Shown: positions 2,998 to 58,876 of the stretch, piece after piece
How the letters are laid out: each line of letters starts with the position of its first letter
Position numbering within the stretch: the first letter of the stretch is position 1
NCBI GenBank assembly: GCA_964016885.1
Contig: OZ024741.1
Coordinates: forward strand, 344,844,001-344,908,000
DNA: 64,000 nt
Direction: 5' to 3'
Origin: Eledone cirrhosa
Taxonomy: Eukaryota
The notes under the pieces: generated by a model
The model's database searches: none
The model's input: only the letters and a program-made list of their open reading frames with translations
What the model was told of the DNA's origin: nothing
Made by a program: the position numbers and the translations under genes

Positions 2998-4071
2998 TAT
3001 AAGAACATAGATTTTACATGTGGCCGGTGCTCTGGTGCAATAAGTAGCAGCAAGTGCCCAGAAAACACTAGCTCTTTCAATTGCGCAGAGGGTTCTATAG
3101 AAATAATGAACAGCTTCCGTTACCTGGGTGACAAAATCAGCAGTGGGGGAGGGTGCTCTGAAAGTACAGTAGCTAGAGTCAGAACTGGATGGAAAAAGTT
3201 CAGAGAGCTTATACCACTATTAGCCGCTAAAGGGTTCTCCCTAAAAACGAAAGGCAGGTTGTATGATGCCTGCATACGAACAGCAATGTTGCATGGCAGT
3301 GAGACCTGGGCATTGTGTGCAGAGGATATACGCAGACTAGAGAGGAACGAAGCTTGCATGCTCCGCTGGATGTGTAATAGTAATATACGTGAACGGCAAA
3401 GCATAAACGAACTAAGGAAAAAATTAGAAATAAGAGGGATCAGATGTTGTTTACTCGAGAGAAGGCTACGTTGGTATGGTCACGTGATGTGCATGAAAGA
3501 CGACAGCTGTATAACAAAGTGCAGGGCAATAAAGATAGACGGTAGCCACGGAGTAGGCAGACCCAGAAAAACCTGGGACGAGCTGATAAATTCTGACCTC
3601 ACACACTTACACCTCTCCAAGACAATGTCACTGGACCGAGATCTTTGGCGGTACTCAGTAACAGAGAAGACCCGCCTTACCTAAATACAAAGTAAAACCT
3701 ACTACAGTCAGTAGGCATCTCTAACAAAATACACCCCCGTCCCACCACCCCCACCCCATCCACACCACCCCTTTCAATGTAAACTTATGTTGGTGCCACA
3801 ACATCCAGGCCGAAACAAATGAGATCGTGTAGGTGTCACGACAAAAAAACACACAGTCCACGCTGTAATGTGGCCGTGTAGGCAACACGGTAAAAACCTC
3901 CCAGCCCCACACTGTAAATGTGGTTGGTGTTAGGAAGGGCATCCAGCTGTAGAAAACCCGCCAGACAGTCCTATGCGAGCAAGACAACCATTCTTGCCTC
4001 AAGTGGGAAAACTCCCGTCCAAACCCATACAAGCGTGGAACATGGACGTTAAACGATGATGAAGATGATGA
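2998..4071 (+). mobile_element. RTE-clade LINE, 5'-truncated (subfamily A)
   Basis: ORF to 3684 (FRYLGD..MLHGSETW..GRPRKTW); 3' part is the near-identical reverse complement of 282-1071; (GAT)n tail. Confidence 0.93.
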
Positions 4072-32707: not shown

Positions 32708-32747
32708 TGTCTTCTGATGAATGATTAGTGTCTGAAACGTTAAGACA
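32708..32747 (+). ncRNA. Minimal type-I hammerhead motif in a PLE pseudo-LTR (32640-32835)
   Basis: TGTCTT-CTGATGA-(weak stem II)-GAAAC-GTT|AAGACA; helix I 6 bp; palindromic ACGT helix III. Confidence 0.6.
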
Positions 32748-43967: not shown

Positions 43968-44091
43968 AAGAATGAGAAATAAAATAGATTGAAGGGACGG
44001 GTGGGGTGGAATAGGAAAAAAATGTATTTAGATAAAAATAACAGGTCCATTCATGTTGACATCTCGTGGTAATATATTTATATATATATAT

Positions 44092-44563
44092 AGTAGTTTA
44101 GATGTTAAAGTCCTTTATTGATAAGGCTGTGATATATATTTTTATGATGACAGTGGCCACACGATTCTGCGTCGTACCCAGTGCCATGATCTCATCAGAC
44201 AGCTACTTACATAATGCCACATTTACACATGCGCAGACCTGTTAACGTGAATTGAAGCTCACAGGGGAACAGGCATTCCCTACATGAACATCGTGTTTGT
44301 CCATTCCCTTGTCACTTCAATTTTGGATTACCTCCTAATTGTAACCTTATTACATAAGAAGCTGTCTGATGAGATCATGGCACTGGATACTACACAGAAT
44401 CGCATGGCCACTGTCGTCTCATCGAAATATGTATCACAGCCTTATCAATAAAGGACTTTAACATCTAAGCTACTTTGTATTTCCTTATTCTAAAAATACT
44501 CCGTCATTCCTATGTGGAAAATGCATGTTGAGTTCTTGAATTGAATTACAGCAATATGTTACC
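44092..44563 (+). mobile_element. Fold-back PLE-derived element (arms 44092-44215 / 44349-44474, tail to 44563)
   Basis: ~125-bp imperfect inverted repeat, each arm with an HHR motif; flanked by TA repeats. Confidence 0.8.
44361..44440 (+). ncRNA. Type-I hammerhead motif with an extended stem II
   Basis: GCTGT-CTGATGA-GAT...ATC-GAAA-TATGT-ATC|ACAGC; the mirror copy at 44125-44203 (-) has GAAA mutated. Confidence 0.75.
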
Positions 44564-44640
44564 GTATATATATTTATGTCCCAAGCCTCTGATACCATCA
44601 ACACTATAAACACAGAGCTGGCATATCTAAGAACTGACTA

Positions 44641-44696
44641 ACTGCTTGATGAGGTCATAGCCATTCAATGGCTATCATCGAACTATATATAGCAGT
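44641..44696 (+). ncRNA. Degenerate hammerhead (U3 variant; GAAC instead of GAAA)
   Basis: ACTGC-TTGATGA-G..ATAGCCATT c AATGGCTAT..C-GAAC-TATATATA|GCAGT. Confidence 0.5.
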
Positions 44697-44758
44697 AAAT
44701 AAAGGATTATGAGTTCATGCAATTGACTTATGTTTCGTCACTATATATATATATATAT

Positions 44759-45102
44759 CCATTTCTCTGAGGGTTCTTAACTCCAATATCAGGCTAAAAT
44801 TTCTTTAGTCAAAAAATACAGTGAAAGCTTCTATTTTCTAATTTCAAACTTGCTTGCTGTTTCAAAACATACTTACTTGCCATCATACTTGCTAAGAATG
44901 TAGCTTCTAATTTGAATGGAAGGAGATGGGTGATGTGTTGGTGTAATGGTAGCACAGTGGTCTGGATAACCAAAGATGTGGGTTCAATTCCCATGTATGT
45001 CAATACTCATCGTTTTCCATTTCTCTGAGGGTTCTAAACCCCACTATCACGCTAAAATTTCTTTAGTCAAAAAATACGGTGAAAGCTTCTATTTTCTAAT
45101 TT
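44759..45102 (+). mobile_element. 258-bp-period partial-tandem element with an internal tRNA-like Pol III cassette (retrozyme-like)
   Basis: 86-bp direct repeats 44759-44844 and 45017-45102; second family member with an inverted 5' arm at 54547-54710. Confidence 0.7.
44932..45002 (+). pseudogene. tRNA-like sequence (71 nt) inside the element
   Basis: A box TGGTGTAATGG, D stem GTGT/GCAC, anticodon arm TGGT-CTGGATA-ACCA, T arm GTGGG-TTCAATT-CCCAT; acceptor stem largely G-U. Confidence 0.7.
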
Positions 45103-46804: not shown

Positions 46805-47051
46805 GTATATATATATTATATATATATATAATATATATATATATATATGTAATATATAAATATATAATATATATATATATATAAAATATATATATATAAT
46901 ATGTATATATATATTATATATATATATAATATATATATATATATATTATATATATATATATTATATATATATATAATATGTATGTAATATATATATATAT
47001 ATAATATATATATATATATAATATTAATATATATAATATAAAATATATATA

Positions 47052-49246
<2,195 letters not shown>

Positions 49247-50470: not shown

Positions 50471-50691
50471 GTGTATATTGTATAGAGTTCCTACCTACAC
50501 CTTTTCTGAATATTGGCACAGCCACCTCCCTAAGTATGATGATGATGATGATGATATATATGTATGCGTGTGTGTATCTGAGTGTGTGTCTGTGTGTATA
50601 TATATATATATATCATTCTCATCATAATTAGGGAAGTGGCTGTGCCAATATTCAGAAAAGGTCTAGGTAGGAGCTCTATACAATATATACA
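50471..50691. repeat. ~65-bp inverted repeat around a microsatellite spacer
   Basis: TATTGTATAGAGTTCCTACCTACACCTTTTCTGAATATTGGCACAGCCAC.TCCCTAA and its reverse complement at 50622-50691. Confidence 0.85.
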
Positions 50692-50778
50692 ATGTAAAAT
50701 GTGGGTACAGAAGAGATGCAGTTGAATTGTAGGCAACCTACAGAAAAGATAGACTTTGTATGTTGTTGATGTACAGGA

Positions 50779-53578
50779 GTAGTTGATAGTTATAGCACTC
50801 TCTGGAAGGTACCATAGAAGTAGTTGATAGTTATAACACTCTCTGGAAGGTACCATAGAAGTAGTTGATAGTTATAGCACTCTCTGGAAGGTACCATAGA
50901 AGTAGTTGATAGTTATAACACTCTCTGGAAGGTACTATAGAAGTAGTTGATAGTTATAGCACCCTCGGGAAGGTACCATAGAAGTAGTTGATAGTTATAG
51001 CACTCTCTGGAAGGTACCATAGAAGTAGTTGATAGTTATAACACTCTCTGGAAGGTACCATAGAAGTAGTTGATAGTTATAACACTCTCTGGAAGGTACC
51101 ATAGAAGTAGTTGATAGTTATAGCACTCTCTGGAAGGTACCATAGAAGTAGTTGATAGTTATAGCACTCTCTGGAAGGTACCATAGAAGTAGTTGATAGT
51201 TATAGCACCCTCGGGAAGGTACCATAGAAGTAGTTGATAGTTATAACACTCTCTGGAAGGTACCATAGAAGTAGTTGATAGTTATAACACTCTCTGGAAG
51301 GTACCATAGAAGTAGTTGATAGTTATAACACTCTCGGGAAGGTACCATAGAGGTAGTTGATAGTTATAACACTCTCTGGAAGGTACAATGGAAGTAGTTG
51401 ATAGTTATAACACTCTCTGGAAGGTACCATAGAAGTAGTTGATAGTTATAACACTCTCGGGAAGGTACCATAGAAGTAGTTGATAGTTATAACACTCTCT
51501 GGAAGGTACCATAGAAGTAGTTGATAGTTATAGCACTCTCTGGAAGGTACCATAGAAGTAGTTGATAGTTATAACAGTCTCGGGAAGGTACCATAGAGGT
51601 AGTTGATAGTTATAACACTCTCTGGAAGGTACAATGGAAGTAGTTGATAGTTATAACACTCTCTGGAAGGTACCATAGAAGTAGTTGATAGTTATAACAC
51701 TCTCTGGAAGGTACCATAGAAGTAGTTGATAGTTATAACACTCTCTGGAAGGTACCATAGAAGTAGTTGATAGTTATAACACTCTCTGGAAGGTACAATG
51801 GAAGTAGTTGATAGTTATAACACTCTCTGGAAGGTACCATAGAAGTAGTTGATAGTTATAACACTCTCGGGAAGGTACCATAGAAGTAGTTGATAGTTAT
51901 AACACTCTCTGGAAGGTACCATAGAAGTAGTTGATAGTTATAACACTCTCTGGAAGGTACCATAGAAGTAGTTGATAGTTATAACACTCTCTGGAAGGTA
52001 CCATAGAAGTAGTTGATAGTTATAACACTCTCTGGAAGGTACAATGGAAGTAGTTGATAGTTATAACACTCTCTGGAAGGTACCATAGAAGTAGTTGATA
52101 GTTATAACACTCTCGGGAAGGTACCATAGAAGTAGTTGATAGTTATAACACTCTCTGGAAGGTACCATAGAAGTAGTTGATAGTTATAACACTCTCTGGA
52201 AGGTACCATAGAAGTAGTTGATAGTTATAACACTCTCTGGAAGGTACAATGGAAGTAGTTGATAGTTATAACACTCTCTGGAAGGTACCATAGAAGTAGT
52301 TGATAGTTATAACACTCTCGGGAAGGTACCATAGAAGTAGTTGATAGTTATAGCACTCTCTGGAAGGTACCATAGAAGTAGTTGATAGTTATAACACTCT
52401 CAGGAAGGTACCATAGAGGTAGTTGATATTTATAACACTCTCTGGAAGGTACCATAGAGGTAGTGGATAGTTATAACACTCTCTGGAAGGTACCATAGAA
52501 GTAGTTGATAGTTATAGCACCCTCGGGAAGGTACTATAGAAGTAGTTGATAGTTATAACACTCTCAGGAAGGTACCATAGAAGTAGTTGATAGTTATAAC
52601 ACTCTCTGGAAGGTACCATAGAAGTAGTTGATAGTTATAACACTCTCTGGAAGGTACCATAGAAGTAGTTGATAGTTATAACACTCTCTGGAAGGTACCA
52701 TAGAAGTAGTTGATATTTATAGCACTCTCTGGAAGGTACCATAGAAGTAGTTGATAGTTATAACACTCTCAGGAAGGTACCATAGAAGTAGTTGATATTT
52801 ATAGCACTCTCTGGAAGGTACCATAGAAGTAGTTGATAGTTATAACACTCTCTGGAAGGTACCATAGAAGTAGTTGATATTTATAGCACTCTCTGAAAGG
52901 TGCCATAGAAGTAGTTGATAGTTATAACACTCTCGGGAAGGTACCATAGAGGTAGTTGATAGTTATAACACTCTCTGGAAGGTACCATAGAGGTAGTTGA
53001 TAGTTATAACACTCTCTGGAAGGTACCATAGAAGTAGTTGATAGTTATAACACTCTCTGGAAGGTACCATAGAGGTAGTTGATAGTTATAACACTCTCTG
53101 GAAGGTACCATAGAGGTAGTTGATAGTTATAACACTCTCTGGAAGGTACCATAGAGGTAGTTGATAGTTATAGCACTCTCTGGAAGGTACCATAGAAGTA
53201 GTTGATAGTTATAACACTCTCTGGAAGGTACCATAGAGGTAGTTGATAGTTATAACACTCTCTGGAAGGTACCATAGAAGTAGTTGATAGTTATAACACT
53301 CTCTGGAAGGTACCATAGAGGTAGTTGATAGTTATAACACTCTCAGGAAGGTACCATAGAAGTAGTTGATAGTTATAGCACTCTCTGGAAGGTACCATAG
53401 AAGTAGTTGATAGTTATAACACTCTCAGGAAGGTACCATAGAGATAGTTGATAGTTATAACACTCTCTGGAAGGTACCATAGAGGTAGTTGATAGTTATA
53501 ACACTCTCTGGAAGGTACCATAGAGGTAGTTGATAGTTATAACACTCTCAGGAAGGTACCATAGAGGTAGTTGATAGT
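50779..53578. repeat. 41-bp tandem satellite, ~68 copies
   Basis: Unit GTAGTTGATAGTTATAACACTCTCTGGAAGGTACCATAGAA, head-to-tail, no spacers. Confidence 0.98.
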
Positions 53579-53589
53579 GTCAGTTAAAT

Positions 53590-54090
53590 AAATGATTAAT
53601 TAGCAGTGGAAGATGTTCTAAAAGCATAATAGCTATAATGAGAACAGGCTGGAAAAAGTTCTGGGCGTTATCACCTCTGTTAGCAACAAAAGGATGGAGA
53701 GGATAGTATATGACGCCTACACGCCAAGTGCAGTGGTGCATAGAAGTGAACAGTGAATGCAAAGGATATGCACAGCCTCGAGAGAAATAAAATGTTAATG
53801 TATATGAACGACAAAACACAGAAAAATCAGATGCATTGTGCAAGAAAGAAGACTGCATTGGTATGGACATGTGATATGTATGGAAGAATATTGTTGGGTG
53901 AAGAAGTGGCTAGATATCCAAGTGGTAGGATGTTGCAGTATCAGAAGACTGAGAAAGACCGGTGTAGAAGTGATGAGAGCAGATTTCAAAATACTGAACC
54001 TCACAGAGGAGTTAAAGGAACACTACAATTGGGGAGAAGCTATCCAACCCATTCAAGCATGGAAAAAGCAGGCATAAAATATTGATGATG
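53590..54090 (+). mobile_element. Degenerate RTE 3' portion
   Basis: QERRLHWYGHVICM..WVKKW; GAT tail. Confidence 0.75.
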
Positions 54091-54400: not shown

Positions 54401-54546
54401 AGAAGGTAAACACACAGACACACATTTAAACCTCTAGCAAAGTATGGTGCACGCTGAAGCCAAGTCATTATTGATAACAAGTGGCATGGTCATTCGTCAC
54501 TGAAAAGGGTCTAAGAAGAAACAAAACACACACACGCATATATATA

Positions 54547-54710
54547 TTAGGAATAGAAGTTTTTTGCCGTATTTTTGACTAAAGAAACTTTAGCCTGATA
54601 GTGGGGTTTAGAACCTTTTAAGAAATGGAAAAAAAAATTTCTTTATCAAAAATACGATGAAAGCTTCTATTCCTAATTTCAAACTCGCTTGCTGTTTCAA
54701 AAGATACTTA
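54547..54710 (+). mobile_element. Fold-back copy of the 44759-45102 family
   Basis: 54547-54630 is the reverse complement of the 86-bp repeat; the forward part ends with tail CAAACTCGCTTGCTGTTTCAAAAGATACTTA matching 44845-44875; in TA repeats. Confidence 0.8.
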
Positions 54711-55259
54711 TATATATATATAAACCACTAGCAAAGTATGGTACACACTGAAGCCAAGTCATTCTTGATAGCAAGTGACAGCACTATAATATATATATAT
54801 TACTTGGTTTTAGTGTGTACCATACTAGTGGTTTTAAATACATATGTAGTCACAAACAGACACAGAAATCCTGTCAATCCTTTCACTTATGCCACTGTAG
54901 AACATCTAAGATGTGTCAACCAGAAGATAGAAAGAACTACACCAGAACCTAAGGGGTTCTTTATTGTCCCAGAAAACATGAAAGACAAAATGTAAATTCT
55001 GCTGAGGTCAACTTTGCCTTTCATCTGTGTACAGAGAGCCAAAAACAAATACTGCAAGGCTTTATTTTCATCTTTCTAACAACTATTCTGATTCACCCAC
55101 ACACAGGTGTGCACACACACACACACAGGTGCCACACATATACACACACACAGGTGCGCGCACATACACAGACACACAGGTGCACGCACATACACAGACA
55201 CACACACAGTAAGCTGGTGAAACGAAAAAAAAAAAACATTTAGTCTACCCTGTGTTAGT

Positions 55260-56329: not shown

Positions 56330-58876
56330 ACAATAAAAGAGAAAACACAGGTAAGCATTAAAAAAAAGGATTTTATCCAGGTATTTACGACCGTTTCATT
56401 GGTAAGCGCAACCTTATATCGCTATACTGCAAATAGTGGCCAATACGACGCAATATAGTCAAACACCTAGGAATAGAGGATAGAATGGAGCCACTTAGGC
56501 CATGTACCCCCAGATTTAACCTCAAGGACCACAAGGTAAATGTTGATTATAACCCCACAATTAGACTTATATGCCCGTCCAAATCAGACATTGGGAATAT
56601 TAGTTAACATATATTAGACAGAGTAATAGCACAAATGAAGAATAAACTAGTGATTAAACTATGGGGTAACACTACCGAAACAATTAAATGGTTTAACAGT
56701 ATAGCTAACAAAAAAGTTTCTAAGTTTATACAATTTGACATTAACAACTATTACTCCTCCATATTCCCCAATACCTTGGATAAAGCTTTAGCATTTGCCA
56801 AAGCCAATTCTGACCTGACAGACGACGAGATAAAAGTTATATTAGCTGCTAGGAAAACAATAATTAAATTTGAAAACGCCTATTGGGAACGTAAGGATAG
56901 ATTAGAAAACTTTGACATCACGATGGGAGCTAATGACTCGGCTCGGGTCACGGATTTAGTAGGTATTTACATAGCCCATAGTTTACATAAGGAATTTAGC
57001 GACCTTCACGGTGGAATCTAAAGAGACGACGCCCTTCTCCTAGTTAAGAACCTAAATAACCAGAGCATAGAAAGACTGCGTAAGAATATTAGAAAGACTA
57101 TCGGGAAACTGGGCCTAAGCATAACAAAATAGTTAACTTTCTAGACGTGACGCTTAACCTAAATAGGGGACTTATAAGACCTTTTCACAAGAATAATGAA
57201 AACTTAGCATACATCAACTGTAATTCGAACCACCCACTCTCCATAATTAAGTCCGTTCCACAAAGCATATCCCTTAGGATCTCCCGCCTCTCGTCTAGGC
57301 CACCTAGATAGAGTAGAATATATAGATGAAAGCCTCTGCAAAGCACACACGAATAGGCATAACACAAACTCCAGAAACACACGCACACACCCATTTACGC
57401 ATAGAACTACCAATTATACTGAAAATAGAAATACAACATCAAAATCAAACAGGTCACGCAGTAGAAAATATATTTGGTATAACCCTATATTTAACACCTC
57501 TATTGGTACCAACCTACCCTCTACCTTCTTTAGAATAATAAATAAGCACTTTCCAGATTCACATAGATACAGCAAAATCCTTAACACTAAATCTATCAGA
57601 CTATCTTACTCCACTGCACCAAACATAGAGGCACACATTAAGATGCTTAATGCTAAAAATATACGTAACAACACCAGAACACAAATTTATAACAATAACA
57701 ATACAATTACCATCGAACACAACAGAAGGCAAACAAAACGTAACACACTTGTACAGGCATCGCAGCCCACCAATAATGCTAAAGTTGCCCATGACAAGAA
57801 TTGTAATTGTCACCTACCTGAAACCTGTCCATTGCATAATGAATGTATGCAGTCTAAGCTGGTTTACCAATGTACGGTCGAATCAGACAACCAGAAGTGG
57901 TATTACATCGGAGCGACTGGGAATACATTTAAAGCTTGTTGGTATACACATCGTTACGCAATCAAACATTCCCAGTATCATTATGTAACTACCCTTGCGA
58001 ACAAGACCTGGCAACTGAGGGAAAGTAACCATCAATACACCCTGAAGTGGAAGAAATTATCGAATGCGCTACATATCGGTGTGGTATGAGAAGCTGTCGG
58101 TTATGTGACCTTGAACTGTTCCACATTTTGAGTTCGAAGAATAAGTTACTCAACGATAAAATTGAAAGATCAATTTATTGCAACCATAGACTTAAAGAAA
58201 AATGTTCGCACTACAAGTGCAAATCGAACCTTTACTCTCCTACTACTACCTGACAAACTTAGACTTTCTACCCTCTTATTGAATCTAACCCCTTTAATTA
58301 CACACAGTAACCAATACTTATGTCCCTCTCTCCTCCTTCATTCCTTTTTTCTTTTTTCGTTTTCTTCTTTTTTTCGTTTTCTTCTTTTTTCTCTCCCTTT
58401 TTTTTGTTCTCTTTTCTGTTCTTTTTTCTCTTCCCCCTTTTTTATATATATATTTATCTCTCTATCTCTCCCCCATCTCTCTCTCTCCCTTCTACTATAA
58501 ACAATTTAATTCTCTTTAACTCCCTACACTGTAAATTGACGACATCAAGTCTACGAATCAAAACTGATTGAGGAATCCTTCCATCTTTACCCCTCCCTCC
58601 ATCACTACTTGTCCCTCTACTTCCTAACTCTTCTCCCCCTTCCTCTCTCTCTATACTAGTAAATACGATTCCAAAAAAATGTTTTTTTTATATATTAAGA
58701 ACCTTTTACAAGTAACTTATTCATTATTTTGAAAATTTGGAGGTGAGTAACAGTTATTATCGAGTGGCTGCTATTTGCAGTATAGCGATATAAGGTTGCG
58801 CTTACCAATGAAACGGTCGTAAATACCTGGATAAAATCCTTTTTTTAATGCTTACCTGTGTTTTCTCTTTTATTGT
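56330..58876 (+). mobile_element. Penelope-like element, Naiad-type, decayed, bounded by ~112-bp inverted repeats
   Basis: RLICPSKSDIG, KWF, FIQFDINNYYSSI, FDITMG, GI*RDDAL, SNHP, CNCHLPETCPLHNEC, VYQC..YIGAT, CRLCDLE; stops and frameshifts; 56330-56442 is the reverse complement of 58765-58876. Confidence 0.9.
58725..58825 (+). ncRNA. Putative hammerhead, U3-A8 core variant, in the Naiad 3' pseudo-LTR
   Basis: TATT-TTGAAAA-tTTGG...CCAAt-GAAA-CGGTC-GTA|AATA; ACGGTCGT is self-complementary with G-U pairs. Confidence 0.5.

Follow-up and report, generated by a model that had tools for sequence, protein, structure and literature searches.

A tRNA-derived tandem repeat family of Eledone cirrhosa that lacks a hammerhead core and is probably mobilised by Penelope-like elements

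The tRNA-derived SINEs (SINE2), including the octopus OK and OR families, combine a tRNA-derived segment bearing A and B boxes with thousands of copies. The metazoan non-LTR retrozymes are short non-coding tandem units of ~170-400 nt, which occur as anything from dimers to large arrays, are defined by the type I hammerhead ribozyme (HHR) of each repeat, and are proposed to depend on Penelope-like elements (PLEs) (PMC7229834; preprint 10.64898/2026.07.22.740005). The schistosome Sm-alpha SINE-like repeats combine Pol III-type promoter sequence with a working hammerhead in a tandem retroelement (PMC6765202). Non-autonomous PLEs of Chlamys, e.g., MRC1, are multicopy head-to-tail elements with PLE-type insertions and a 3' end resembling that of an autonomous family; the PLE group concerned has no canonical hammerheads, and the available parts of its description report no tRNA domain for MRC1-type elements (PMC8557442). 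The features of PLEs include partial tandems, inverted 5' arms, a 30-40-bp tail, and a bias toward (TA)n (PMC8557442), and both strands of AT-rich DNA are cleaved by a purified PLE protein, which initiates inside the RNA at two sites and for which hammerhead cleavage is dispensable (PMC11167929). Short non-autonomous Penelope elements have also been mentioned without detail (10.1101/596502).

The unit considered here is located in a window of 64,000 nt, i.e., the whole stretch of E. cirrhosa DNA that was analysed. A sequence-only reading of this window had described two direct repeats 258 bp apart (44759-44844 and 45017-45102), which are indeed 81/86 identical, and between them a tRNA cloverleaf (44932-45002), which is called by ARAGORN as tRNA-Ser(GGA) and matches Rfam RF00005 with 48.5 bits (E 2.5e-07). 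The second copy with an inverted repeat was likewise recovered as an inverted and a forward arm, the latter continuing into the sequence found after the first repeat. The layout of both insertions is as follows.

44742-44758, no strand: (TA)n target tract 5' of the insertion, read from the sequence and from family-wide (AT)n adjacency
44759-44844, plus: first 86-bp repeat, a 5'-truncated partial unit (monomer ~173-258)
44845-45102, plus: complete 258-bp monomer of subfamily A
44874-44883, plus: equivalent of the second 3'-end cluster (monomer 30-39), from the 3'-end histogram
44914-44931, plus: leader strand of the predicted 18-bp helix closing the tRNA
44932-45002, plus: tRNA-like domain with a D arm common to host tRNA-Gln, a GGA anticodon, and a short variable arm
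44987, plus: T-loop adenosine equivalent to A58 (tRNA index 56), just 3' of which the 5' truncations of the family accumulate
45005-45022, plus: trailer strand of the closing helix with a T run (T4 in the window copy, T5 in the majority sequence)
45029-45068, plus: two small hairpins, the second with a stem kept and a loop length that differs among subfamilies
45078-45087, plus: GGY-GNNA-GCT hairpin, previously read as a GAAA box; GAAA is not conserved
45085-45102, plus: first 3'-end cluster (monomer 241-258), the window copy's own 3' end
54552-54632, minus: inverted arm of the second, head-to-head insertion, subfamily E-like as judged by eye
54634-54710, plus: forward arm of that insertion, its 3' end in cluster 2 and next to (AT)n

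An imperfect direct repeat of ~60 bp (~54429-54488 and 54724-54783) flanks the second copy, its left arm not abutted. Several unrelated features share the window. A canonical type I hammerhead motif at 44362-44439 (plus strand), with an inverted partner near 44090-44200, belongs to a separate family that is arranged head-to-head, ends at (TA)n, and is likely a true retrozyme. A degenerate hammerhead-like hairpin of another family (44640-44741, plus strand; z -3.63) ends in the (TA)n in which the tRNA unit sits, and minimal hammerhead motifs of the PLE type were found at 32714 (plus strand) and 43963 (minus strand). Further, the window contains a 41-bp tandem satellite (~50650-53700; at least 68 copies, 95-99% identical) and a 697-bp inverted repeat (378-1074 and 3286-3982; 97% complementary) made of LINE fragments, which we take to be RTE-like.

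A search of the genome (3.0 Gb, 1796 contigs) with the unit yielded 4129 first-look candidates, the best 40 of which gave 118 matches, tandem arrays among them. An exact 20-mer just 3' of the tRNA has 4107 matches and one inside the tRNA 1159 (control, 0 in both cases); thus the family comprises at least 4107 arms, and its abundance is far above chance. A 258-nt majority sequence was built from 70 full monomers. Five subfamilies were distinguished: A (258 nt, including the window copy), B (290 nt), C (~271 nt), D, which is older (41 exact matches), and E (318 exact matches). The majority sequence of A is 90, 85, and 70% identical to those of C, B, and D, respectively. Tandem units are 258-290 bp long and form dimers up to arrays, as in retrozymes, and the tandem, permuted-looking copies that had been predicted occur across the family. 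The tRNA segment is integral in every subfamily and does not represent a separate SINE insertion. Among individual matches, one locus (L065) is a truncated subfamily E copy, and 56 matches to one genome-wide tail pattern look like family members by the matched text; a leader variant seen in contigs of runs X1 and X2 had no match in this genome.

The largest arrays raise the question of spread at the DNA level, by rolling circle or as a foldback transposon. Subfamily B forms a 290-bp satellite on contig C28 (L330-L333), where 4/4 10-kb samples spanning ~235 kb (~19.45-19.69 Mb) were entirely tandem with 93-95% identity, and two arrays on C3 contain ~17 and ~28 units. Nonetheless, we consider such an origin of the dispersed copies highly improbable, given that truncation is polarised to the 5' side and the stop is tied to a T-loop base of the tRNA, and that the variants of the C28 array were absent, by eye, from the dispersed B copies inspected.

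The insertions show the structural features of PLEs. They are 5'-truncated and include partial tandems and an inverted 5'-truncated arm, as in non-autonomous PLEs; head-to-head arms were observed in 116/228 insertions and in 18/24 of a position-ordered sample, tail-to-tail arms in 0/228. (AT)n abuts the 3' ends of 77/99 A-class arms, as compared with 9/99 of 5' ends and 279/2830 (9.9%) of random flank points. Most A-class arms (85/99) end within 60 of the 258 positions, in two clusters ~40 nt apart (monomer ~238-260 and 288-297, the latter equal to ~30-39 of the next unit; peaks at 248/256 and 35/39), part of this sample being biased by the query ends, as the loci concerned were picked by likeness to window fragments. 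In the position-ordered sample, 18/22 3' ends lie inside the 60-position zone and 26/43 lie against (AT)n. The window equivalent of the second cluster is located directly 3' of a TGTTT/AAACA hairpin and is a putative second zone of RT initiation. No ordinary, non-simple target-site duplication was found among the 228 insertions; flank matches of at least 7 nt, present in 25/228, are all short AT-rich words. Mobilisation by PLEs, as the sequence-only reading proposed, is the best interpretation of this anatomy, and the unit is likely moved in trans by a PLE reverse transcriptase with a GIY-YIG endonuclease.

The same window contains a representative of the putative mobilising enzymes, an illustration of the class and not an established partner of the unit.

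47037-49138, plus: 5'-truncated young autonomous-type PLE with RT, C-terminal GIY-YIG, and pLTR, between (TA)n tracts

Its family is young, the best 40 matches being 96-100% identical, and has open frames of 713-741 aa and the same end anatomy as the unit. Atlas neighbours of the protein carry GIY-YIG and RVT_1; Pfam and PDB searches with it were blank. In comparisons covering five PLE ends and three long copies, a minority of the PLE families of the genome, the unit had no significant DNA similarity to the five ends (best z 2.06, 10/300 shuffles, 1 of 20 comparisons) and no meaningful match to the three full-length copies; no similarity like that of the MRC1-type elements to an autonomous family was found among these. 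At one locus (L337), one of three matches of the fusion pattern, the end of a unit is fused directly to the tail of the young PLE, a single chimera consistent with a template switch. The pLTR of the young PLE (window 49050-49120, also L070-L089) bears a non-canonical hammerhead-like motif by manual reading (CAGAAGA, GAAA, long helix III), the fold of the window copy being not significant. A second, decayed PLE-like RT/GIY-YIG fragment was read from translations at 56608-58200 (plus strand).

The hammerhead scaffold claimed for the unit did not survive comparison with other copies. The proposed core site holds CTGANGA in 0/127 unit pieces and CTCATCT in 79/127, and the majority sequence has CTCATCT after AATA. 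The ATCGT strand of helix II occurs in 1/129 pieces, namely in the window copy, and the supposed GAAA box, which forms a small hairpin loop, is replaced by GATA in subfamily C and by GGAA in D. The earlier impression of a hammerhead is explained by the ATCG/CGGT pairing, which does fold, in the window copy alone. Elsewhere, sense CTGANGA occurs in 3/120 arms, each time by one change in a hairpin. CUGANGA was found on neither strand of four majority sequences, in a scan that took in known core variants such as U3-A8 (PMC4209133), for which the single match lies on the minus strand of subfamily D. Pattern searches of the whole genome for a relative sharing the tail, whether hammerhead-bearing or autonomous, gave chance-level counts (5 vs 1 control, 2 vs 2, and 8 vs 4). 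Rfam searches of five loci at E ≤10 retrieved no ribozyme family, only weak mascRNA matches far below threshold; the test is a weak one, given that the hammerhead next to the unit went undetected by Rfam as well.

The explanation first supposed, a hammerhead retrozyme with a decayed core in the window copy, would agree with the unit size and tandem habit of the non-LTR retrozymes (PMC7229834), with the canonical hammerhead motif ~320 bp upstream of the unit, and with the stretch GGTGAAAGC that subfamily A shares with a PLE end. The 0/127 core count, the four majority sequences, and the chance-level patterns largely refute this explanation and leave it with hardly any probability. The sequence-only reading had itself named the lack of a consensus ribozyme core as evidence against its proposal, and no such core was found; since the hammerhead is not supported, neither is the label "retrozyme". 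The unit behaves in the genome like a retrozyme and has a tRNA-like domain as its core instead of the type I hammerhead that published retrozymes carry in each repeat, which places it outside that class.

This tRNA-like domain lacks two features of a functional tRNA gene, namely an anticodon that matches the body and an anticodon loop of canonical form: in the Rfam alignment, the GGA anticodon is accompanied by a 4-nt variable loop and U37, whereas serine tRNAs possess a long variable arm. An 18-nt D-arm motif is common to host tRNA-Gln genes and subfamily D copies. The remaining stems differ from tRNA-Gln and still pair; hence the Gln origin rests on the D arm. A tRNA-Gly origin was rejected, as the corresponding D-arm variant had 0 matches. 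The host tRNA-Gln genes include a cluster (L133 1454-1525 and L137; G000:C1, ~168.2 Mb), some members of which are repeated copies having CTA as anticodon and an anticodon stem that is disturbed; these resemble amber suppressors and are probably pseudogenes. A predicted leader-trailer helix of ~18 bp encloses the tRNA of the unit (window copy z -2.54, 2/200 shuffles), and in 32 real copies 87.8% of cells pair, as compared with 37-47% when slid. Covariation of the proposed structure in these 32 copies was not above that in shuffles (0.133 vs 0.138), so that selection on the fold is unproven by that test, and the circular fold of the A majority sequence was not significant (z -1.66, 60 shuffles). 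A similar arrangement is known from MALAT1, whose mascRNA module has a tRNA-like fold with a leader-trailer helix that extends the acceptor stem inside a longer transcript and promotes RNase P cleavage (PMC8457004). MALAT1 is a single-copy gene with proven RNase P processing, whereas the unit is mobile and has a bulge predicted on the 3' side, and the RNase P parallel may serve as an analogy only.

As to a Pol III-type promoter, A and B boxes are present in subfamilies A, B, C, and E (in the window copy, at ~44939-44949 and ~44981-44991), and the B box is broken in D. As the source of the template, Pol III transcription is doubtful: the majority sequences of A-D have a T5 run after the tRNA, copies stem from RNA reaching 100-150 nt past it, and subfamily D has spread although its T loop has no A58. 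The nearest promoter-bearing case is Sm-alpha, which differs from the unit in its working hammerhead, the unit having none and a T5 run after its tRNA (PMC6765202). Arms that reach tRNA +1 stop there (-4 to +5) in only 1/14 cases in A/B/C/E and 4/15 in D; most pass it, and the template was thus continuous across +1 in most events.

These ends also bear on the alternative of a conventional Pol III tRNA SINE that depends on a LINE for its mobility, with tandems arising from read-through. The A and B boxes, the tRNA-Gln-like D arm, and the RTE fragments common in the window would suit such an element, which we nonetheless regard as very unlikely. The 5' ends are not piled at tRNA +1, and therefore the unit is not an ordinary tRNA SINE; moreover, its 3' ends are scattered over 60 nt, (AT)n borders the outer end of both arms, T5 directly follows the tRNA, and non-simple duplications are missing from all 228 insertions. 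With respect to SINE2, neither copies starting at the tRNA 5' end nor a LINE-type 3' tail with target-site duplications were found: the tRNA is internal to a permuted tandem with no fixed 5' end, and the insertion ends are of the PLE type.

Rare variants are common to tandem units of one insertion at 18/7281 sites and to inverted arms at 24/12177 (p 0.52), and pooled differences are 5.8 and 5.7%, respectively. Sharing within insertions is ~6 times the between-insertion rate, the between-insertion difference being inflated in this test, as E and some D copies were counted in group A. The equal pooled differences and the shared rare variants fit one repeated template. Per insertion, tandem units differ more than inverted arms (6.9 vs 5.9%, Wilcoxon p 0.009), which leans towards linear multimers.

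The 5' truncations are concentrated at a single place in the tRNA. When arms were sampled with anchors located 3' of the tRNA, 48/67 of A/B/C, 11/14 of E, and 2/31 of D stopped at tRNA index 55-66 (Fisher p 1.3e-10). Altogether, 59/81 arms of the A58-bearing subfamilies stop just 3' of A58, and with one arm per locus the counts are 38/50 and, for D, 2/24. Subfamily D has no A58, but its T stem, its closing helix, and the downstream palindromes are retained; thus, neither microhomology nor stem pairing is sufficient to account for the stop. The T-loop adenosine A58 of tRNAs is methylated by TRMT6/61A. Modifications of the Watson-Crick face block reverse transcriptases (PMC8062790), and we rather favour m1A58 in the template RNA as the cause of the subfamily-dependent stop. 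The peak of stops, at index 61-62, falls on a CATG palindrome where inverted arms meet and on an AT word where an arm meets the target. As the peak is displaced by 4-5 nt from the predicted stop at 57, the model needs trimming to microhomology; a hard stop at 57 followed by such trimming would yield the observed peak. Several junctions place the ends at index 55-58, adjoining A58.

Under PLE mobility of the same kind, the pile-up might instead reflect a purely structural block or a real RNA 5' end at which a nuclease has cleaved the T loop, with no methylation involved. The stop requires the T loop to be intact, and this loop forms the tRNA elbow as well; the position of the peak at index 61-62 agrees with this account, as does the lack of misincorporation at A58 in read-through copies (5/135), which speaks against the methylation model. 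On the other hand, D keeps the T stem, closing helix, and palindromes and yet does not stop, several ends do adjoin A58, and a known class of RT block (PMC8062790) lies at hand. We regard the account without methylation as possible but rather unlikely. The missing stops of D could also reflect another enzyme or a lost tertiary fold, as D is older and ~70% identical to A.

Taken together, the unit is a member of a large tRNA-derived tandem repeat family that has no hammerhead core and is probably mobilised in trans by PLEs. Its template would be an RNA continuous across unit borders, either a monomer circle or a read-through multimer. The PLE enzyme would cut (TA)n on both strands and start reverse transcription inside this RNA at two zones ~40 nt apart, which would result in head-to-head arms. 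The tRNA part would fold as a tRNA in vivo and likely be methylated at A58, halting the enzyme in about three-fourths of passes, after which the closest microhomology, either the CATG palindrome or AT, would serve to join the ends. Other passes would give partial tandems, a few of which may have later expanded into local arrays. More tentatively, and in our opinion with rather little likelihood, the tRNA-shaped domain could replace the hammerhead: within read-through transcripts it would be recognised by host tRNA enzymes, which would excise a unit-length RNA, the leader-trailer helix would hold its ends, and the nicked or sealed circle would be copied by rolling-circle PLE reverse transcription. 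If true, the unit would be a circular retroelement that is processed like a tRNA and has no ribozyme, and its dead copies would in addition be a record of m1A58 in the template.

As judged from its sequence, the unit is thus best described not as a retrozyme but as a non-autonomous PLE passenger of tRNA origin that has no ribozyme. In the openly readable literature, we found no account of PLE passengers that contain a tRNA and lack a hammerhead, nor is such a class listed in the parts of the O. vulgaris annotation that were covered (PMC13282606); an unnamed entry in Repbase/Dfam or in an O. vulgaris library may exist. In the available accounts of the published tandem PLE passengers compared, each has either a hammerhead or similarity to a PLE end; the unit shows neither in the tests run, and it bears on what the PLE enzyme requires in its RNA. 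With its mapped end zones, it is a short natural template for the existing in vitro PLE assay. In practice, annotation would mistake thousands of its arms for tRNA-Ser(GGA) genes or SINEs. Finally, the subfamily dependence of the A58 stop suggests that an RNA modification may be readable from genomic insertions alone, with a built-in control.
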